DNA of 64,000 nt, from NCBI GenBank assembly GCA_023132155.1, contig JAGLYP010000023.1, forward strand, positions 11,504 through 75,503, given 5' to 3'. This stretch comes from Candidatus Parcubacteria bacterium. GTDB lineage: Bacteria > Patescibacteriota > Patescibacteriia > Patescibacteriales > UBA12075. Position 1 is the first letter of the stretch. Every line of letters begins with the position of its first letter. A model generated the notes under the pieces. That model was not told the DNA's origin. It was given only the letters and a program-made list of their open reading frames with translations, and did no database searches. Positions 53,181 through 63,513 of the stretch are shown piece after piece. The translations under genes were made by a program, and so were the position numbers.

Positions 53181-54740
53181 ATGACCCTAGATTTGTCGCC
53201 AATTTATAATTTTTTTGCCTTGCCCATGAATGAGCAAGTATATCTTTTTTTGCTGTATTTCGCGTGGATTCCGGTTGCTTTTGTAATTCTTTATGGCGCC
53301 AAAGAACTGTGGGTAGATTATATTCAAGGCAAATGGGCGGCAGAGCAAAAATATATTTTACTGGCGATTGATATTCAGCGCGGAAATGAACAATCAGTTA
53401 AAGCGGTAGAAAATTTATTTGTATATTTTGGCGGAGCGCATGGCACTTTTAGTTTAATTGAAAAATTTTGGGTAGGAAAACATCAGCTTGGTTTTAGCTT
53501 TGAAATTGTCAGTATAGAAGGATATACCCAGTTTTTAATCCATACGCATGAAGCATTTCGCAATTTTGTTGAAACCGCGATTTATGCCCAGTATCCTGAC
53601 GCTGAAATTACCGAAGTTGATGATTATGTTGAAGATATCCCCACTAAATATCCTGATGATGAATATGATATTTGGGGCGCGGAATTTATTTATAGCGATC
53701 CTCCCGCTTATCCGATTAGGACTTATAAGGATTTTGAGGATACGGCAGCCGGCAAGCCCGAACTTCAGTTTAAAGACCCGATGGCTTCGTTAATGGACTT
53801 ATGCAGCAGCCTGGGACCGGGTGAACAGCTTTGGTATCAGATGATTATCGTGCCTACTGACTTTGAATGGACAAAAGAACTGAACAAAGAAGCCGGTAAA
53901 ATTTTAAATGAAAAAGTAAAGGCCGAAAAAGGCTCTTTTTCCAAGTTTTTCGGCGAAATCAAGAGCTGGATTGATGAATTCACCGAACAGGCGTTCAGCT
54001 GGAGCATGGGTTCTTTTGCTGAAGCGGAAACGGCTGATGACGCTTTAAAAATGATGAATTTGAAACCTCAGGAAAAAAAGCAGATTGAGGCTATTCAAAA
54101 TAAAATATCAAAAATCGGTTTTGAAGCAAAAAATAGGATGATTTATGTGGCTAAGAAAGAAAATATGAACAAACCCAAAGTTGTTAACGGTTTTGTGGGC
54201 TATATGAAGCAATTTACCGACTGGGATTTAAACGGTTTAAAGCCGGACATGAAAAAAACCGCGACCTCAACTTCTTATTTTTTTAAAGAAGCGCGCGTTA
54301 ATGCCAAAAAAATTAAAATAATGGCGGCCTATAAAAAAAGAAGCGATTTTTTAGGGCGTTTAACTAAAGTTTTTAATGTTGAAGAATTGGCGACTTTGTG
54401 GCATTTTCCAATTGAAAGCGTAGTTAAGGCGCCATTAATTCAAAAGGCGGCAGGCCGCAAGGCAGAACCGCCAATGAGCCTGCCCTTAAGCGAGGGCGCG
54501 GTAAGTGAAGCGGCTTTATATCCCGAAGATGAAGATATTTTTGGCGGCGTTGATTTGAAAGAGAGCGGCGCTAACCATGAAGAAAAAGAAGATGATAATA
54601 AAATAAAAGATAAGCGCGGTGATTTGGATGAGATATTCAGTATTGAAGAAGATATTAATAAAAAATATCCCGTGAAAAAAATAAAAATCGCCCCGGCCGA
54701 GGCTAAAAGTTCGCCTCCGTCCAATTTGCCTTTTGCCTGA
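53181..54740 (+). CDS. Membrane-anchored hypothetical protein; partner of the downstream TraD/VirD4-like ATPase.
   Basis: A single N-terminal TM (VYLFLLYFAWIPVAFVILYGA), then a large soluble domain. Confidence 0.45.
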   Translation: MTLDLSPIYNFFALPMNEQVYLFLLYFAWIPVAFVILYGAKELWVDYIQGKWAAEQKYILLAIDIQRGNEQSVKAVENLFVYFGGAHGTFSLIEKFWVGKHQLGFSFEIVSIEGYTQFLIHTHEAFRNFVETAIYAQYPDAEITEVDDYVEDIPTKYPDDEYDIWGAEFIYSDPPAYPIRTYKDFEDTAAGKPELQFKDPMASLMDLCSSLGPGEQLWYQMIIVPTDFEWTKELNKEAGKILNEKVKAEKGSFSKFFGEIKSWIDEFTEQAFSWSMGSFAEAETADDALKMMNLKPQEKKQIEAIQNKISKIGFEAKNRMIYVAKKENMNKPKVVNGFVGYMKQFTDWDLNGLKPDMKKTATSTSYFFKEARVNAKKIKIMAAYKKRSDFLGRLTKVFNVEELATLWHFPIESVVKAPLIQKAAGRKAEPPMSLPLSEGAVSEAALYPEDEDIFGGVDLKESGANHEEKEDDNKIKDKRGDLDEIFSIEEDINKKYPVKKIKIAPAEAKSSPPSNLPFA

Positions 54741-54759
54741 TTTATATTAAAAAGAAAAT

Positions 54760-56514
54760 ATGTTCAACGATGATATAACAGTATTTGCGGAAACGACTTT
54801 TCGCAATAAAAATCAAAAATTCGGAATCAAAATTGACGATCGGCGCCGGCATATGTATCTGATTGGAAAGACAGGCATGGGCAAATCAACGGTTTTGGAA
54901 AATATGATAATTGGCGATATTCGCGCGGGAAAAGGCGTTGCAATCGTGGATCCGCACGGGGATTTGGCGGAAAAAGTGATTGAGTATATTCCGACGGACA
55001 GAATCAACGATGTGGTTTATTTTAATCCGGCGGATATGGAGAATCCGATTGCTTTTAACGTGGTTGAGCATGTCGCGCCGCATTTAAGGCATTTGGTTGC
55101 CTCCGGACTTTTGGGGGTTTTTCAAAAATTGTGGGCTGATTCATGGGGGCCGCGGCTTGAATATATTTTAAGAAATTCAATATTGGCGGTTTTGGATTAT
55201 CCGGGTTCCACGCTTTTGGCGGTAACCCGCATGCTGTCTGATAAAAAATTCAGGAAAAAAGTAATTGATAAAATTCAGGATCCGGTTGTAAAGGCTTTTT
55301 GGGTAAATGAGTTTGCCGGCTATAATGATAAATTCGCCTCTGAAGCGGTTTCGCCGATACAAAATAAAGTCGGACAATTTTTATCAAGCTCTTTAATCAG
55401 GAATATTGTCGGACAGGTGAAATCTTCAATTGATATGCGGAAAATTATGGATGAAGGCAAAATTTTGATTATGAATTTAAGCAAAGGGAGAATCGGCGAA
55501 GATAATTCACGCCTTTTAGGCGCGATGATGATTACCAAAATTCAATTGGCGGCCATGAGCAGGGTAGATGTTGATGAAAGCGAAAGAAAAGATTTTTATT
55601 TATATGTAGACGAATTTCAAAATTTTGCCACTGACAGCTTTGCCAATATTTTATCCGAGGCCAGAAAATATCGTTTGAATTTGGTTTTAGCGCATCAATA
55701 TGTTGAGCAGGTTGAAGAAAAAGTGCGCAACGCGATATTCGGCAATGTCGGCACCTTGATTGTGTTTCGCGTGGGCGCGGCTGATGCCGAGTGGGTGGTT
55801 CCTGAATTTACACCGACTTTTACCGAAGAAGATATTGTTAATCTTCCTAAATATGAAGTTTATTTAAAATTAATGATTGACGGAATCGCGTCCGAGCCTT
55901 TTTCAGCCAGAGGCTTGCCGCCTTTGTCTGATTCTGAAAAAACCGGAAATACGCAAAAAGTGATTAGTGTTTGCCGTGAGCGCTATGCTAAACCCAGAGA
56001 GGTGGTTGAAGATAAAATAAATCGTTGGCATGAAGACGGCGGCAAAGATGAGGAAGAATATGATAATAGAAATAGTAAAACACAAAATAATAATATTAAA
56101 AATATCGGCGAAACGGATAATAAAAAAAATAATTCCAGCATCAGCCCGGTTGCTAAAAATCTTGATAATTCTGTTTATAAACACGAGGCAAAATGCAGCC
56201 GTTGCGGCAAAGATACGAAGATTTCTTTTAAACCGGATGGAATCCGCCCGATCTATTGCCGTGATTGTTTGACAATAATACGAGAAGAAAAAAAACAAGA
56301 ACTTGAAAATCGCAAGGAACTTAAAAGCAGAGAATTAAAAAAAATTAAAAACAAATCAGAAGATGCTGTTATGCAAGATGTCTCAACTATTTCCCTTAAA
56401 GACGCGTTGTCAAAGCCTCCGGTAAAATTTAAAGCGGGCTCACGGAGACAATTTAATAAATCCCAAAAACCAAAAACCAACATTCTTGGAGAAGGGGAGG
56501 AAGTTGTGTTTTGA
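54760..56514 (+). CDS. TraD/TrwB/VirD4-like P-loop ATPase (type IV secretion DNA-binding-domain family) with a C-terminal CxxC...CxxC zinc ribbon.
   Basis: Walker A LIGKTGMGKST, Walker B LYVDEFQNFA, LVLAHQ, and the ribbon KCSRCGKDTKISFKPDGIRPIYCRDC. Confidence 0.6.
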   Translation: MFNDDITVFAETTFRNKNQKFGIKIDDRRRHMYLIGKTGMGKSTVLENMIIGDIRAGKGVAIVDPHGDLAEKVIEYIPTDRINDVVYFNPADMENPIAFNVVEHVAPHLRHLVASGLLGVFQKLWADSWGPRLEYILRNSILAVLDYPGSTLLAVTRMLSDKKFRKKVIDKIQDPVVKAFWVNEFAGYNDKFASEAVSPIQNKVGQFLSSSLIRNIVGQVKSSIDMRKIMDEGKILIMNLSKGRIGEDNSRLLGAMMITKIQLAAMSRVDVDESERKDFYLYVDEFQNFATDSFANILSEARKYRLNLVLAHQYVEQVEEKVRNAIFGNVGTLIVFRVGAADAEWVVPEFTPTFTEEDIVNLPKYEVYLKLMIDGIASEPFSARGLPPLSDSEKTGNTQKVISVCRERYAKPREVVEDKINRWHEDGGKDEEEYDNRNSKTQNNNIKNIGETDNKKNNSSISPVAKNLDNSVYKHEAKCSRCGKDTKISFKPDGIRPIYCRDCLTIIREEKKQELENRKELKSRELKKIKNKSEDAVMQDVSTISLKDALSKPPVKFKAGSRRQFNKSQKPKTNILGEGEEVVF

Positions 56515-57655: not shown

Positions 57656-59527
57656 ATGACCTCAAAACAAATACGACAAAAATATTTGAATTTTTTTAAA
57701 AAGCAAGGGCATGTGATTATTCCCAGCGCGTCATTGATTCCTGAAAATGACCCCTCTTCACTTTTTACAAGTTCAGGTATGCAGCCTCTAGTTCCTTACT
57801 TGACTGGAGAAACTCATCCGGAAGGGGCTCGACTTACAAATAGCCAAAAATCATTTCGTTCCGGAGATATAGAGGAGGTTGGAGATAACAGGCATAATAC
57901 TTTTTTTGAAATGCTGGGAAATTGGAGTTTGGGGGATTATTTTAAGAAAGAACAACTGCGCTGGCTTTTTGAATTTTTAATTAAGGAAATTAAACTTGAC
58001 CCAAAACGAATATACGCAACGGTTTATTCCGGTAATAAGGAAATCGGCGTAGAGCAAGATAATGAATCAGTTGAAATTTGGCAAGAATTATTTAAAGAGG
58101 CTGGTATTGAAGCCATGGATTACGATAACGTAGAAAAAGCAGGCATGAGAGATGGCAGGATATTTTATTATGGAGATGAAAGAAATTGGTGGAGCCGTTC
58201 CGGCGAGCCGGCAAATATGCCGATTGGTGAAATCGGCGGTCCGGATTCGGAAGTATTTTATGATTTGGGCGCGGATTTAAAAAGGCACGAAAATTCAAAA
58301 TGGAAAAATGAACCCTGCCATGTGAATTGTGATTGCGGCCGTTTTATTGAAATTGGCAACAGTGTTTTTATTCAGTATATAAAAACAAAAAGCGGATTTG
58401 AACAATTGAAGCAGAAAAACGTGGATTTTGGCGGCGGCTTAGAGAGAATAACTATGGTGAGCCAGAAAAAAGATAATGTTTTTGAAACTGATTTATTTGA
58501 AAATATTTTGGAAAAAATAAAAGAATTATCAGGCAATAAAAATTATCGCGATCATACCCGCGCTTTTGAAGTAATTGCCGATCATTTAAAAGGCGCTTGT
58601 TTTCTAATGGGAGATGACAAAGGAATCGCGCCGTCAAATGTTGACCAAGGTTATATTATCAGACGTTTAATTAGACGTGCCGTACGTTTCGGCCGTAAGC
58701 TCGGAATTAACAATATTGGATGGACAAAAGAGGTTGCGGAAATAGTGATTAGTGATTATGAATATATTTACGGAGAATTAAAACGAAACAAGGAATTTAT
58801 TTTGTCCGAAATGGAGAAAGAAGAAAAGAAGTTTCAAAAAACTTTGGAAAAGGGTGAAAAAATGATAAAAGATGAAATAATTGACGGAGAATCAGCATTC
58901 AATTTATTTCAAACTTACGGATATCCGATAGAAATGACAATTGAGATTGCCCAAGAAAGAAATATTAAATTATCAGATGATTTTTATAAGGAATATAATG
59001 AAGCCTTAAAAAAACATCAAGAACTATCCCGAACCGCAAGCGCGGGAAAATTTAAAGGCGGTTTGGCTGATTCCGGTGAAGAAACCACAAAATTGCATAC
59101 CGCGGCCCATCTTCTGCTTGAGTCTTTGCGAAGAGTTTTAGGCGGTCACGTTTGTCAGCGCGGCAGTAATATCACAGCTGAACGCTTGCGTTTTGATTTT
59201 AATCATGGTGAAAAATTAAGCGATCAAGAAAAACATAAAGTGGAAGATATGGTTAATGAACAGATTAACAAAAAGTTAGACGTAACAGTACGGGAAATGA
59301 GCCTTGAAGAAGCAAAAAAGCAAGGCGCCACCGGAGTTTTTGAATCAAAATACGGCGAAAAGGTTAAAGTTTATACCATAGGCAAAGGTGAAGATGCATT
59401 TTCAATGGAAATATGCGGCGGTCCGCATGTGAAAAATATCGGTAATTTGGGAAAATTCAAAATAAAAAAGGAAAAATCCTCCTCAGCAGGAGTAAGGCGC
59501 ATTAAAGCCGTGCTTGAATTTTGCTAA
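57656..59527 (+). CDS. alaS: Alanyl-tRNA synthetase, truncated form (catalytic plus editing domains, no C-Ala domain).
   Basis: The N-terminus aligns with E. coli AlaS (FTSSGMQPL, TFFEMLGNWSLGDYFK); the editing-domain HxxxH and CGGPHV motifs are present; 623 aa. Confidence 0.85.
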   Translation: MTSKQIRQKYLNFFKKQGHVIIPSASLIPENDPSSLFTSSGMQPLVPYLTGETHPEGARLTNSQKSFRSGDIEEVGDNRHNTFFEMLGNWSLGDYFKKEQLRWLFEFLIKEIKLDPKRIYATVYSGNKEIGVEQDNESVEIWQELFKEAGIEAMDYDNVEKAGMRDGRIFYYGDERNWWSRSGEPANMPIGEIGGPDSEVFYDLGADLKRHENSKWKNEPCHVNCDCGRFIEIGNSVFIQYIKTKSGFEQLKQKNVDFGGGLERITMVSQKKDNVFETDLFENILEKIKELSGNKNYRDHTRAFEVIADHLKGACFLMGDDKGIAPSNVDQGYIIRRLIRRAVRFGRKLGINNIGWTKEVAEIVISDYEYIYGELKRNKEFILSEMEKEEKKFQKTLEKGEKMIKDEIIDGESAFNLFQTYGYPIEMTIEIAQERNIKLSDDFYKEYNEALKKHQELSRTASAGKFKGGLADSGEETTKLHTAAHLLLESLRRVLGGHVCQRGSNITAERLRFDFNHGEKLSDQEKHKVEDMVNEQINKKLDVTVREMSLEEAKKQGATGVFESKYGEKVKVYTIGKGEDAFSMEICGGPHVKNIGNLGKFKIKKEKSSSAGVRRIKAVLEFC

Positions 59528-59743
59528 TATTAAATAATTATTTTATTTCTTTGAAAATAGCAATTTTTTACTTGACAATAAAATTATTTAGATATATAAT
59601 ATTTTTATAATATTCAAGTAAATTATTAAAATATTACCAATATTATTTTGGTAGAATTTTTAAATTTTGCCAATTTTTTTGTGTTTATTGAAAGCAATAA
59701 AATATTAATTTTAAAGTAAAGAAAAATTTCAATATTATCATTC

Positions 59744-60730: not shown

Positions 60731-61411
60731 ATGACAGAAGATAAAAAAGCTACAGTCAAAACAGGGGAATCCGCTTCTGAGAAAAAATCCGCTGCCGCTG
60801 AAGCTAAGACGGGCAAATCCGCTATGTCCAAAGAAGCAACGGACAATAAAGAAAAAAAAGTTGAAAAATCAACTGCTCTTAAGGCTGAAAAAAGTAAAAA
60901 AGAAGTTAAAAGCGGCAATGCCCCGAAAAGCGAGGCTGACTTGGGCTTGGAAGAATTGCCGGAAGAAATTAAGAAAAAATTAGAAAAAAAGAAAGCCGAA
61001 AGAGACCAGAAATCAAAAGGGAAAAAGGCGCGAAAAAAGAAAAAGAAAACAGCGCGAACTAACGTTTCCGTTGGAAAAGCCTTTATAAAAGCAACATACA
61101 ATAATACAATTGTTACTATAACCGATTTACAGGGCAATGTTATTTCTTGGGCAAGCGCCGGAATCGCGGGGTTTAAAGGACCGAAAAAATCAACTCCATA
61201 CGCCGCTTCCGTTATTACCCGTTTAGCGGTCGGAAAGGCAAAGGAAGAATATGGATTATCCGAAGTAAGCGTTTTTGTAAAAGGCGTTGGAACAGGAAGA
61301 GAGTCGGCCGTTAGGGCATTGAACAGCAATGGCTTGAATGTTACTTTAATTAAAGATGTTACGCCGATTCCTCATAATGGCTGCAGGCACAGAAAACCAA
61401 GAAGAGTCTAA
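60731..61411 (+). CDS. rpsK: 30S ribosomal protein S11 with a ~100-aa K/A/E-rich N-terminal extension.
   Basis: The C-terminal ~125 aa are canonical S11 ([18 protein letters not shown]...). The N-terminal 100 aa are a low-complexity basic tail. Confidence 0.85.
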
Positions 61412-62117: not shown

Positions 62118-62170
62118 GTTATCAGCTTCGCTGACCCGTCTCTACAAATACGGGACATGCGAATTATAAT
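62118..62170 (-). repeat. Copy 4 of the conserved leader stem-loop element, in inverted orientation between rpsD and rpoA.
   Basis: The reverse complement is ATTATAATTCGCATGTCCCGTATTTGTAGAGACGGGTCAGCGAAGCTGATAAC. Confidence 0.55.
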
Positions 62171-62200: not shown

Positions 62201-63040
62201 ATGGAGAACATCGCTTTACCCAGAAATGTAAAATTTAACAAAGGTGAAAGTGATAATGAGGCGCGAATTATAGTTGAACCTTGTTTTCCCGGCTATGGCG
62301 TAACTTTGGGCAATTCAGTTAGAAGAGTTCTGCTTTCAAGTCTGTCCGGCGCGGCTCCGGTTGGTATCGTGATTGAAGGAGTTAGCCATGAATTTACGGC
62401 ATTGCCGCATTTAAAAGAAGATATTTTAGAGTTTATTTTAAATGTTAAACAACTGCGCTTAAAAATGCATATTGATGAAACGGTTATTTTAAATTTGGAA
62501 GTTCATGGAAAAAAAATAATTAAAGCCTCTGATATTGAGCTAAATTCGCAAGTTGAAATTGTTAATCCTGATTTAGAGCTTGGTACAATAACCGATATGG
62601 CGGGTAAAATAAACGCCAAGATATATGTTAAAAAAGGCATGGGTTATGTTACCATTGAAAGCCGTGAAGAAAAACAGGACATTGTAAATTATATAGAGAT
62701 GGATTCAATTTTTTCTCCAATTGTTTTAGCCGGCGTAAAAGTTGAAAATGTTCGTGTCGGCAAGATGACTAACTGGGATAAGTTGGTTTTAGACCTTAAA
62801 ACAGATGGCACAATTACTCCAAAAGAAGCTTTTTGCGCTTCAGTTGAAATATTAATTAAACAGCTTTTAGCGTTAATTCCGAAAGAAAGCGTAAAAGATA
62901 TTTCAGAAGATAAAACCGGGGATATTGAAGAAAAAACAGAAAAAAAAGAAGAAGTTGAAAAAAAAGAAAAAAAAGAAAAGGTTGAAAAAAATGAAGTGAA
63001 AGAAAAAAAGAAAAAGCGAGGACGGCCAAAAAAATCATAA
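62201..63040 (+). CDS. rpoA: DNA-directed RNA polymerase alpha subunit lacking the alpha-CTD; the C-terminus is a K/E-rich linker ending in an AT-hook (KKKRGRPKKS).
   Basis: The N-terminal domain (aa 1-230) aligns with alpha-NTD. Residues 231-279 are EDKTGDIEEKTEKKEEVEKKEKKEKVEKNEVKEKKKKRGRPKKS, with no alpha-CTD fold. Confidence 0.85.
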   Translation: MENIALPRNVKFNKGESDNEARIIVEPCFPGYGVTLGNSVRRVLLSSLSGAAPVGIVIEGVSHEFTALPHLKEDILEFILNVKQLRLKMHIDETVILNLEVHGKKIIKASDIELNSQVEIVNPDLELGTITDMAGKINAKIYVKKGMGYVTIESREEKQDIVNYIEMDSIFSPIVLAGVKVENVRVGKMTNWDKLVLDLKTDGTITPKEAFCASVEILIKQLLALIPKESVKDISEDKTGDIEEKTEKKEEVEKKEKKEKVEKNEVKEKKKKRGRPKKS

Positions 63041-63059: not shown

Positions 63060-63410
63060 ATGAGGCATAGAGTTAAAAAAAATATTTTAGGCAGAAAAAA
63101 AGAGCCGAGAGAAATGATGTTAAGGAATTTAACATCCAGTATTTTAATATATGAAAAAGTAAAAACCACCAAAGCGAAAGCGAAGGCCGTAAAACCGTTA
63201 GTTGAAAAGGCGATTACCGCGGCAAAAAAAGGCGATTTAGCCGCCAGAAGATCTTTGATTGAGAAATTACCTCAAAAAATGGCAATTAAAAAAGCAATGG
63301 AAGTTCTTGGTGAAAAATACAAAGAAAGAAAAGGCGGCTATACAAGAATTATTAATTTACCGCAAAGACAGGGCGATGGAGCTGAGATGGCGCAGATTGA
63401 GTTAGTTTAA
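63060..63410 (+). CDS. rplQ: 50S ribosomal protein L17.
   Basis: MRHRVKKNILGRKKEPREMMLRNL.... Confidence 0.9.
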   Translation: MRHRVKKNILGRKKEPREMMLRNLTSSILIYEKVKTTKAKAKAVKPLVEKAITAAKKGDLAARRSLIEKLPQKMAIKKAMEVLGEKYKERKGGYTRIINLPQRQGDGAEMAQIELV

Positions 63411-63480
63411 TTATAAATGGGATTGTTGCGATTGTTGGGATTGTTAAGATTTTTGAGATACAATTCTCAAAAATCCTAAA
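63411..63480. repeat. Intergenic GGATTGTTG direct repeats plus the hairpin GATTTTTGAGA-tacaat-TCTCAAAAATC.
   Basis: Read from the sequence. Confidence 0.45.
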
Positions 63481-63513
63481 AATCTCAGTATAGAAAATAT
63501 TATAAAAAATACT

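Follow-up and report, generated by a model that had tools for sequence, protein, structure and literature searches.

An RNA polymerase alpha subunit from Parcubacteria that lacks the C-terminal domain and ends in a conserved AT-hook

Upstream DNA contacts and AT-hooks in described systems

The C-terminal domain of the RNA polymerase (RNAP) alpha subunit (alpha-CTD) is treated as universal in bacterial RNAP, where both UP-element recognition and the action of class I and class II activators centre on it. The UP elements that it binds are A/T-rich (PMC10243135). Alpha subunits that keep the N-terminal domain (NTD) but have lost the alpha-CTD have been described for Hodgkinia, Tremblaya and Euglena chloroplasts, and for Parcubacteria in one sentence (PMC8321222); the work cited for the loss in Parcubacteria (Nelson & Stegen, 2015) contains no such statement in its text. 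For Hodgkinia, Tremblaya and Euglena chloroplasts, the published accounts speak of erosion and report no replacement motif. That Parcubacteria have lost the CTD has already been mentioned in print; a literature search found no paper linking an AT-hook to RpoA, and we found no published description of the hook reported here.

AT-hooks, defined by an RGRP core with Lys or Arg on both sides, are known from two proteins of the bacterial transcription machinery. CarD of Myxococcus xanthus, which binds RNAP-beta, has an HMGA-like C-terminal domain: a highly acidic stretch of ~50 residues comes after the RNAP-binding module, and beyond it lie RGRP hooks that bind AT tracts upstream of the promoter, at -63 and -77 (PMC4374960, PMC8156234). 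According to a review, the AT-hook domain of CarD can be exchanged with histone H1-like, basic (lysine-rich) disordered tails (PMC8156234). In the RNAP-promoter complex of mycobacterial WhiB7, the C-terminal AT-hook of this protein occupies the minor groove at an AT-rich motif (PMC10243135). The eukaryotic HMGA proteins are intrinsically disordered and combine K/R-flanked RGRP hooks with an acidic segment (PMC4482583).

The rpoA gene and its missing C-terminal domain

The gene studied here lies in a stretch of 64 kb, all of which was analysed and is called the window; its features are collected in Table 1. Pfam searches matched the encoded RpoA to PF01000 (residues 57-172, E 3.9e-26) and PF01193 (residues 26-222, E 1.1e-16) only, and a tblastn search with E. 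coli RpoA as the query gave a match (E 6e-41) confined to E. coli residues 20-246. When RpoA was compared with the alpha subunits of the PDB using phmmer, residues 7-233 aligned with E. coli residues 11-239 (E 3e-39), and alignments with solved alpha subunits, at E values down to 7e-48, were restricted to their NTDs. The AF2 model gave a pLDDT of ~85-96 as far as ~residue 232. The database record with this exact sequence carries the name 'DNA-directed RNA polymerase subunit alpha [Candidatus Parcubacteria bacterium]', and an identical 279-aa RpoA was found in independent assemblies (GCA_030631305.1, SRR13892600 and SRR13892597). The gene stands in an rpsM-rpsK-rpsD-rpoA-rplQ cluster, an order also seen at related loci: the start of L17 (MRHR...) lies 5-35 nt past the rpoA stop in L004, L010, L012 and L030, and the L17 gene is directly 3' of rpoA in L096, L097 and L099 as well. 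By its NTD and its synteny the protein is a true RpoA orthologue with a non-canonical architecture. The 279-aa RpoA of the original prediction was borne out, with a complete alpha NTD and the identical protein in independent assemblies.

Table 1. Features of the rpoA region, with positions in the window and the basis of each assignment
Feature	Position	Strand	Basis or detail
rpoA, RNA polymerase alpha subunit, 279 aa, without alpha-CTD	62201..63040	+	ORF, Pfam, NCBIfam
Alpha N-terminal (dimerisation/assembly) domain, residues 1-228	62201..62884	+	AF2, phmmer, tblastn
Glu/Lys-rich linker, predicted disordered, residues 229-268	62885..63004	+	AF2, homologue comparison
AT-hook KKKKRGRPKK, residues 269-278, then Ser and stop	63005..63034	+	PF02178, homologue conservation
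rplQ (L17)	63060..63410	+	Pfam PF01196, E 1e-31
Candidate promoter of infA-rpsM-rpsK-rpsD-rpoA-rplQ cluster, TTGACA-17-TATAAT, 12/12	59572..59600	+	Consensus scan only
rpsK (uS11), N-terminal extension of ~90 aa	60731..61411	+	S11 domain from ~residue 105-115, to 225, of 226 aa
Conserved motif in rpsK extension (15 residues)	~60950-60994	+	Homologue comparison

[quoted passage not shown] No PF03118 (alpha-CTD) match was found in RpoA with Pfam, and tblastn with E. coli RpoA found no CTD in the 64-kb window. The NCBIfam rpoA equivalogs matched up to model positions ~227-257 of 298-340 only, and their scores fell under the cut-offs (239.6 against 277, and 223.1 against 227.8) because the C-terminal third of each model was unmatched. 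PF03118 was absent from all 120 nearest homologues (238-300 aa), and none of them matched a custom CTD HMM. The rpoA stop codon occupies 63038-63040 and rplQ begins 19 nt later, which leaves no room for a CTD. A CTD lying downstream in a shifted frame, a finding that would have told against the original prediction, is not there. A frameshift or assembly artefact was ruled out by the identical protein in at least three assemblies, the in-frame tail of 86 homologues and the adjoining rplQ.

The C-terminal tail and its distribution

Past the NTD, RpoA continues for 51 aa (residues 229-279) that contain 20 K+R and 16 D+E residues and have KKKKRGRPKKS as their C-terminus. A canonical AT-hook had been foreseen in this tail and is present, its RGRP core (encoded by CGA GGA CGG CCA at 63017-63028) standing between KKKK and KK. 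PF02178 (AT_hook) was the sole Pfam match of the tail, at 12.7-13.8 bits (E 0.055-0.12; cut-off 17.4), and its alignment stops at profile position 10 of 13 because the protein ends there. The window's 607 ORFs (six frames, ≥40 aa) contained no other [RK]GRP motif. The tail peptide carrying the hook is EKKKKRGRPKKS.

RGRP is not missing from orthologues. Of the 120 closest homologues, 86 carried [K/P]KK[K/R]RGRP[K/R]K near the C-terminus, 3-6 residues ahead of the stop, and all 86 had an unchanged RGRP with K/R at positions -2, -1, +4 and +5. The hook was retained at 42-50% NTD identity (L012, L030, P0124, P0129 and P0131) and at a locus GC of 0.53-0.54 (L012 and L099). Complete genomes with a hook-type rpoA include GCA_030631305.1 and L010 (chromosome OZ246416.1). 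Over nine lineages, four codons were used for each Arg of RGRP, three for Gly and four for Pro, with the amino acids constant; this synonymous variation, which includes two lineages at a GC of ~0.54, points to selection on the peptide. The hook had a mean pairwise identity of 0.81, the NTD one of 0.68 and the linker one of 0.16. These sequence comparisons show the hook to be under protein-level purifying selection across deep divergence. Conservation through an overlapping DNA signal, such as the RBS of rplQ, was considered and ruled out, since synonymous change is saturated and the gap to rplQ ranges over 5-35 nt.

The linker of 93 hook-bearing homologues was 27-64 aa long (median 39), with a median net charge of -9, 33.5% Glu and 17.7% Lys. 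In the AF2 model pLDDT was <50 over residues 236-272, and the RpoA tail is predicted to be intrinsically disordered. A rigid ER/K single alpha-helix was considered for the linker, for which AF2 drew helices at 228-237 and 242-257, and was rejected: the region of pLDDT <50 takes in all of the second helix, and such a helix is no general feature of the linker because most linkers of the orthologues are acidic, with P/G/A/T among their residues. The tail DNA is rich in A-runs, and composition-driven low complexity is a plausible origin of the linker; for the hook it was rejected, given GC-rich codons amid A-rich DNA and retention at a GC of 0.54. The K/E-rich tail of ~50 aa ending in an AT-hook that had been read from this DNA is, at 51 aa, genuine coding sequence.

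An NJ tree of the NTD contained a CTD-free clade of 139 sequences, comprising 88 with a hook, 36 with a lysine-rich tail and 15 with neither. This clade is a large group of Patescibacteria (Falkow-, Kuenen-, Veblen-, Uhr-, Magasanik- and Moranibacteria-like), and the CTD is retained in other CPR lineages. Inside it the tail types alternate between the hook, lysine-rich stretches, decayed hooks (KKRGRGKK, KKRGRSKK and KKKGRKKK) and no basic tail; lysine-rich tails (KKTKKK, KKEKKK and similar) were also found in many sequences neighbouring the clade. Many CTD-less relatives are hookless, and some are without any basic tail (examples are Uhrbacteria L007 (237 aa), L008, L011, L015, L028 and L044); the function of the hook is therefore dispensable or replaceable. 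A metagenome scan was dominated by the low-complexity word EKKEKKEK and yielded 12 loci only. As judged from the tails compared, the hook is one of several interchangeable types within a clade-wide loss of the CTD, a point missed by the original prediction. Tail type may provide a simple sequence marker for subclades.

The hook had been rationalised by a genome of 65% AT, and this reasoning did not hold. GC along the window is 0.33-0.40, and no correlation of the hook with genome AT content was found among the compared loci. The hook is kept at GC 0.53-0.54, and the AT-rich relatives L002 (GC 0.28), L023 (0.31) and L014 (0.32) have a CTD-less alpha with neither a hook nor a lysine-rich C-terminal stretch.

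With regard to promoter-upstream DNA, AT-rich sequence including AATTTTTT adjoins the -35 of the candidate promoter at 59572, a single anecdote in a genome with AT-rich intergenic DNA throughout. The best promoter-like site of L012, which is GC-rich and hook-bearing, has two A6 tracts 10 bp apart, ~25-40 nt upstream of -35, again a single case; two of the tail-less sites used for comparison (L015 and L028) apparently lie inside coding sequence. Such observations of upstream AT are uninformative because intergenic DNA is AT-rich throughout the genome.

The rpsK gene of the same cluster had been credited with a basic N-terminal extension, taken as a sign of a lineage-wide tendency to add tails. 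The extension is present, with ~90 residues beyond ordinary S11 proteins, but its charge is mixed over the first 70 residues (K+R 18, D+E 13) and strongly basic only at ~residues 81-110. The extension and its motif are kept in L001-L006 and L081-L087 and absent from L007, L008, L010-L012 and L030, a narrower distribution than that of the hook. Charged segments of >40 aa occurred in RpoA and S11 only among the 54 ORFs of the window, and with the S11 extension having its own motif and range, the general tendency was not upheld.

A proposed role for the hook and its alternatives

Like the canonical alpha-CTD of E. coli, the hook stands on a flexible linker on the same alpha-NTD, in two copies per RNAP, and the A/T-rich minor groove upstream of -35 is the known target of the CTD (PMC10243135, PMC8321222). 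However, the CTD is a helix-hairpin-helix domain of ~70 aa, whereas here a 10-residue motif is carried on a longer acidic linker (median 39 aa) and offers no folded surface for CRP-type activators. CarD shares an RNAP-associated module, a disordered acidic segment and RGRP hook(s), and the interchange of its hooks with H1-like tails mirrors the alternation of hooks and lysine-rich tails in RpoA. Unlike RpoA, CarD acts as a factor of its own: it has four hooks on each chain, needs CarG and is found in myxobacteria only; the RpoA hook is single and fused to a core RNAP subunit that has no homology to the CarD N-terminal domain. WhiB7, too, binds the RNAP holoenzyme and has one AT-hook, at its C-terminus, but it is a regulated Fe-S transcription factor on sigma region 4, whereas RpoA is a constitutive core subunit.

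HMGA proteins resemble the tail in their disorder, K/R-flanked RGRP and acidic segment, and the KRGRPKK of RpoA matches the core of the third HMGA1 hook exactly. Unlike the RpoA tail, HMGA proteins carry three hooks, end in an acidic tail and act as free architectural factors. By its pLDDT and linker charge, the RpoA tail has the disordered acidic segment beside the hook that is characteristic of HMGA-like domains; it has one hook per chain and not 3-4 AT-hook repeats. The tail may, by analogy, work like an HMGA-like domain without being a member of the family, and an independent origin of the RpoA and HMGA hooks is the likeliest. A single AT-hook alone is a weak binder, as seen in work on HMGA, and bivalency in RpoA could come only from the alpha dimer.

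We lean towards the view that the tail is a tethered minor-groove binder, present twice per polymerase, which has assumed the DNA-contact role of the CTD. This RpoA is the genuine and, on this view, the sole alpha subunit of the organism's RNAP, built from the assembly NTD, a predicted disordered, net-acidic linker of ~40 residues and a single C-terminal AT-hook. With two alpha subunits per core RNAP, each enzyme would bear two hooks on flexible tethers that leave its upstream face at the place where the canonical linker and CTD exit. The RGRP core would insert into short A/T tracts upstream of -35, where the minor groove is narrow, and the acidic linker would keep the tether away from the DNA and could mask the hook in its unbound state. 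We infer for the hook that it binds the minor groove, lies upstream of promoters and functionally replaces the CTD. It would provide the upstream-DNA anchoring role of the alpha-CTD and be unable to serve as a CTD-like docking surface for activators, and alpha-CTD-dependent activation would therefore be missing from the clade.

Alternatively, any disordered basic C-terminus might act as a generic polyanion tether, either keeping RNAP non-specifically attached to DNA or the nucleoid or making one-dimensional search faster, with the AT-hook being one interchangeable version and no UP-like element being read. The lysine-rich tails found at the same position in 36 of the 139 CTD-free sequences and in many neighbours suggest that polyanion binding, and not AT-specific reading, may be selected, and the existence of decayed hooks is consistent with this, as is the replacement of the CarD AT-hook domain by an H1-like basic disordered domain (PMC8156234). 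Charge alone, however, would let G and P drift, whereas RGRP is fixed in 86 of 86 sequences at saturated synonymous change, and the hook is better conserved than the folded NTD. We consider this explanation rather unlikely.

The ligand of the tail might instead be RNA (nascent or structured) or another protein, for instance if the tail replaced the contacts of the alpha-CTD with elongation factors; the acidic linker would then be a protein-interaction or DNA-mimic segment. Predicted disorder and strong charge would suit such a role, and AT-hook-type motifs have been reported as RNA binders in some eukaryotic proteins. We nevertheless regard it as improbable: the canonical KRGRPKK form is of the DNA minor-groove type, both bacterial transcription-machinery precedents (CarD and WhiB7) bind promoter-upstream DNA, and the poor conservation of the linker (0.16 identity) argues against a specific protein interface in it.

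A split alpha, in which a stand-alone alpha-CTD encoded elsewhere associates non-covalently and the hook is an accessory, appears very improbable, and we know of no example. The span searched was 72 kb (the 64-kb window and 8 kb of flank) of a genome of at least 769 kb, which favours this explanation to some extent, but the custom CTD HMM gave a best E value of 1.3 over every frame of it, compared to 5e-22 for positive controls, and a CTD was found on 0 of the 120 closest homologues and 0 of the 139 sequences of the CTD-free clade. A separately encoded CTD, which the original prediction had recognised as a finding that would contradict it, is excluded for those 72 kb. Finally, the A-runs throughout the tail DNA and the hypervariable linker might suggest a non-functional low-complexity extension that slippage at A-rich codons has produced in a genome rich in AT, or a poly-A assembly or frameshift artefact, but this is hardly credible and is effectively refuted at the sequence level by the same protein in independent assemblies, by GC-rich RGRP codons whose amino acids are kept through synonymous variation in nine lineages including those at GC 0.53-0.54, by a motif at a fixed distance from the stop with rplQ adjoining, and by its being the sole [RK]GRP of 607 six-frame ORFs.

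Returning to the tethered minor-groove binder, we tentatively suggest a wider picture, in which this radiation may have swapped the alpha-CTD for a eukaryote-style AT-hook on an acidic tether, so that two hooks would read the upstream promoter and there would be no alpha-CTD-dependent activation; the recurrent changes from one tail type to another (hook, lysine-rich or none) would then be the trace of evolution still trying out ways for a minimal RNAP to hold upstream DNA. The tail would be a second, independent bacterial case of the acidic-segment-plus-AT-hook design, after CarD, and A/T tracts upstream of -35 are predicted to be functional elements in hook-type genomes. If true, this would be a natural, minimal "domain replacement" experiment, from a CTD to a 10-residue minor-groove hook, and CPR bacteria would depart from the paradigm established in model organisms, both in the architecture of their promoters and in the regulation of transcription.

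An alpha subunit without its C-terminal domain

Pfam searches of the window RpoA, which NCBI names as an alpha subunit of Candidatus Parcubacteria bacterium, matched PF01000 (residues 57-172) and PF01193 (residues 26-222), which together make up the alpha N-terminal domain (NTD); the alpha C-terminal domain (CTD, PF03118) was absent from it. The NCBIfam rpoA equivalogs matched strongly (E 4e-71) yet reached only model positions ~227-257 of 298-340, and for this reason scored slightly under the cut-offs. Only residues 20-246 of E. coli RpoA could be aligned to the protein, and alignments to solved RNA polymerase (RNAP) alpha chains spanned the NTD only (e.g. query 7-233 to E. coli 11-239). The genes of the cluster stand in their ordinary order, infA-rpsM-rpsK-rpsD-rpoA-rplQ-rplM-rpsI, and the protein is an orthologous alpha subunit.

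A tail of 51 residues (ESVKDISEDKTGDIEEKTEKKEEVEKKEKKEKVEKNEVKEKKKKRGRPKKS) follows ...LIKQLLALIP, which ends at residue 228. AlphaFold2, run with a 67-sequence alignment, modelled the NTD confidently (pLDDT ~85-96 to ~residue 232) and gave pLDDT <50 over residues 236-272; disorder is predicted for the tail found in place of the CTD. By sequence, the final 10 residues of the tail form a classical AT-hook (the hook), preceded by a linker. PF02178 was the sole Pfam family to match the tail, at 13.8 bits against a cut-off of 17.4, the protein ending at profile position 10 of 13. The original observation of an RpoA that ends in an AT-hook and has no CTD was confirmed.

Since rplQ starts right behind the rpoA stop codon, a CTD in a downstream frame is impossible. 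An identical 279-aa RpoA was called in an NCBI metagenome assembly (GCA_030631305.1) and in two read-set assemblies made independently (SRR13892600 and SRR13892597), which speaks against a frameshift. A separately encoded CTD was sought by tblastn with the E. coli domain, which found none in the window, and with our own iterated HMM, which found none in any frame of the window and 8 kb of flank (best E 1.3, compared to 5e-22 for positive-control loci); together these are 72 kb of a genome of at least 769 kb. Six-frame translation of the window gave 607 ORFs of 40 aa or more, and in these [RK]GRP occurred once only, in the hook.

Features of the window by position
Feature	Position	Strand	Remarks
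DUF8128 protein, then TrwB/TraG-like coupling ATPase	53181-56514		519 aa and 584 aa (DUF87, TrwB_AAD_bind, TraG-D_C); resemble genes for type IV secretion or conjugation; small GIY-YIG ORF downstream
Alanyl-tRNA synthetase (alaS)	57656-59527		623 aa; tRNA-synt_2c and tRNA_SAD only; usual C-terminal (DHHA1/C-Ala) part apparently missing
Perfect consensus promoter TTGACA-17-TATAAT	59572-59600		Between alaS stop and infA (region 59528-59600)
rpsK	60731-61411		Motif in S11 extension at ~60950-60994
GC-rich hairpin (CCCGTCTCTACAAATACGGG)	62137-62156		In rpsD-rpoA spacer (84 nt)
Promoter-like site TCTACA-18-TATAAT (10/12)	62141-62170		Overlaps the hairpin
rpoA	62201-63040	+	ORF, 279 aa
RGRP core, codons CGA GGA CGG CCA	63017-63028	+	GC-rich codon island within A-rich DNA
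rpoA stop codon	63038-63040	+	
rplQ (PF01196)	start 63060	+	Pfam match
rplQ-rplM spacer	63411-63513		Short direct repeats (GGGATTGTTGCGATTGTTGGGATTGTT), inverted repeat (TTTTTGAGATACAATTCTCAAAAA); L13 ORF that follows only 118 aa

Conservation of the hook

The best 120 homologues were 238-300 aa long and contained PF01000 and PF01193 only; none matched the CTD HMM, and 86 carried RGRP inside the last 14 residues. A logo of these 86, anchored on RGRP, read [K/P]-K-K-[K/R]-R-G-R-P-[K/R]-K-x with 3-6 residues from Pro to the stop, and the columns upstream were variable and Glu/Asp-rich. Of the 67 aligned sequences, 57 bear a hook, and among these mean pairwise identity was 0.68 in the folded NTD, 0.16 in the linker and 0.81 in the hook. 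In 93 hook-bearing homologues the linker had a median length of 39 aa (range 27-64) and a median net charge of -9, Glu making up 33.5% of it and Lys 17.7%.

Where DNA was available, in nine lineages (locus GC 0.32-0.54), the amino acids of the hook core were unchanged while each Arg position used 4 codons, Gly 3 and Pro all 4. Such synonymous variation is a mark of purifying selection on the peptide, and these comparisons show strong constraint on the last 10 residues at the protein level. An overlapping DNA signal as the target of conservation was rejected, because the codons vary synonymously and the distance from rpoA to the rplQ start varies (5-35 nt among hook-bearing loci). The 86 hook-bearing homologues, the identical protein elsewhere and the codon variation effectively refute neutral low complexity or artefact as the origin of the tail, although low complexity driven by base composition is plausible for the linker. 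The hook is almost certainly a selected functional element.

Distribution of tail types

An exhaustive HMMER search with the NTD over 50%-identity representatives returned alpha subunits with and without a CTD. Among the best 150, our HMM found the CTD in 91 and not in 59; six of the 59 end in a hook and others in lysine-rich tails, with a few frameshifted or truncated sequences among them. A few homologues in this search were 475-664 aa long, three with the NTD matched in two stretches (P0121, P0122, P0193) and one with a long N-terminal addition (P0164); they may be fused genes, carry tandem alpha domains or stem from faulty gene calls.

Among 80 GTDB species representatives, with lineage taken from the record title, the CTD was retained in Nomura-, Zambryski-, Kaiser-, Azam- and Doudnabacteria, Minisyncoccales and non-CPR outgroups. 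It was absent from the twelve loci most similar to the window (L001-L012, with Falkow-, Uhr- and Veblenbacteria among them) and from Kuenen-, Magasanik- and Moranibacteria, a set which we take to be roughly GTDB class ABY1. In NCBI taxonomy, Falkowbacteria belong to the Parcubacteria group, within Patescibacteria. The CTD has been lost throughout a large clade. In a crude neighbour-joining tree of the NTD, one CTD-free clade of 139 sequences held 88 with a hook, 36 with lysine-rich tails and 15 with neither; more CTD-less sequences, five of them hook-bearing, lay just outside it. Hooks were present at NTD identities to the window protein as low as 42-50% (Veblenbacteria L012, Kuenenbacteria L030, P0124, P0129 and P0131). 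Some lineages have no basic tail, e.g. Uhrbacteria L007 (237 aa), with in-frame stops confirmed. Otherwise lysine-rich CTD-less alphas (P0047, P0048, P0054, P0081, P0143 and L026) have C-termini resembling decayed hooks (KKRGRGKK, KKRGQGK, EKRGRKKK, KKRGRSKK, KKKGRAKK and KKKGRKKK), which suggests transitions from hook to lysine tail. Tail type did not track GC, with hooks at 0.32-0.54 and tail-less proteins at 0.28-0.59.

The predicted N-terminal extension of rpsK is real: the S11 domain starts at ~residue 105-115 of 226, and in close relatives the S11 core is preceded by 69-97 residues, compared to ~14-22 in ordinary bacteria. Pfam found no match within the extension (about 90 aa). Because it is shared by relatives and holds a motif, (D/E)ELPE(E/D)IK(K/Q)KLEK(K/N)K, conserved amid variable sequence, it is coding sequence with its own constraint. 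Motif and long extension occur only in the window's subclade (motif in L001-L006 and L081-L087) and absent from hook-bearing L010 (chromosome OZ246416.1), L012 and L030. Charged segments >40 aa occurred in RpoA and S11 only (2 of 54 window ORFs), and a lineage-wide tendency to add tails was not established.

A possible role on upstream DNA

The consensus promoter before infA is likely that of the rpoA-containing cluster. AT content is 0.83 over the 60 nt before its -35, which AATTTTTT adjoins, an anecdote from a single site. The best promoter-like site of L012 (GC 0.54), TTGACA-16-TATACT at about 355-424, has two A6 tracts 10 bp (one helical turn) apart ~25-40 nt upstream of the -35 (CCAAAAAATGCCAAAAAACG), again a single case. 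Nothing like these tracts was seen at the best sites of most tail-less GC-rich relatives, L044 having a T7 run and the comparison sites in L015 and L028 lying apparently inside coding sequence.

Since the NTD dimer of alpha is located on the upstream face of RNAP, the two hooks per enzyme, on acidic tethers of ~40 residues, could both reach DNA upstream of the -35 and would insert into minor grooves of A/T tracts. One precedent is Myxococcus CarD, in which a domain that binds RNAP is joined to a highly acidic stretch of ~50 residues and to RGRP hooks, with AT tracts at -63 and -77 as the binding sites of the hooks (PMC4374960, PMC8156234). WhiB7, whose C-terminal AT-hook occupies the minor groove at an AT-rich motif in its RNAP-promoter complex (PMC10243135), is another.

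The main rival, that any basic disordered tail is enough with no AT-specific reading, finds a basis in the lysine-rich tails of sister lineages; their alternation with hooks parallels the exchange of the CarD hook domain for H1-like basic disordered tails (PMC8156234). The invariant Gly and Pro of the hook argue against it, and we consider it unlikely. Binding of the tail to RNA or a protein partner is improbable, and a split alpha with a stand-alone CTD elsewhere in the genome, of which the 72 kb searched gave no trace, very improbable.

We lean slightly towards the hook as a tethered minor-groove binder of upstream DNA; it would take over the anchoring to DNA from the CTD, but not the docking of activators. 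The original interpretation is partly supported: it holds for the missing CTD and the conserved AT-hook, but not for the link to an AT-rich genome or a general tail tendency.

Natural CTD loss is documented in Hodgkinia, Tremblaya and Euglena plastids, and one sentence states that it "is also present in Parcubacteria" (PMC8321222), a loss unmentioned in the text of the reference cited there. The literature covered, with most subscription journals outside it, described neither an AT-hook on alpha nor CPR promoter recognition. Within that coverage, we rate motif and subunit of the hook-bearing alpha as each known, and their clade-wide combination as new.
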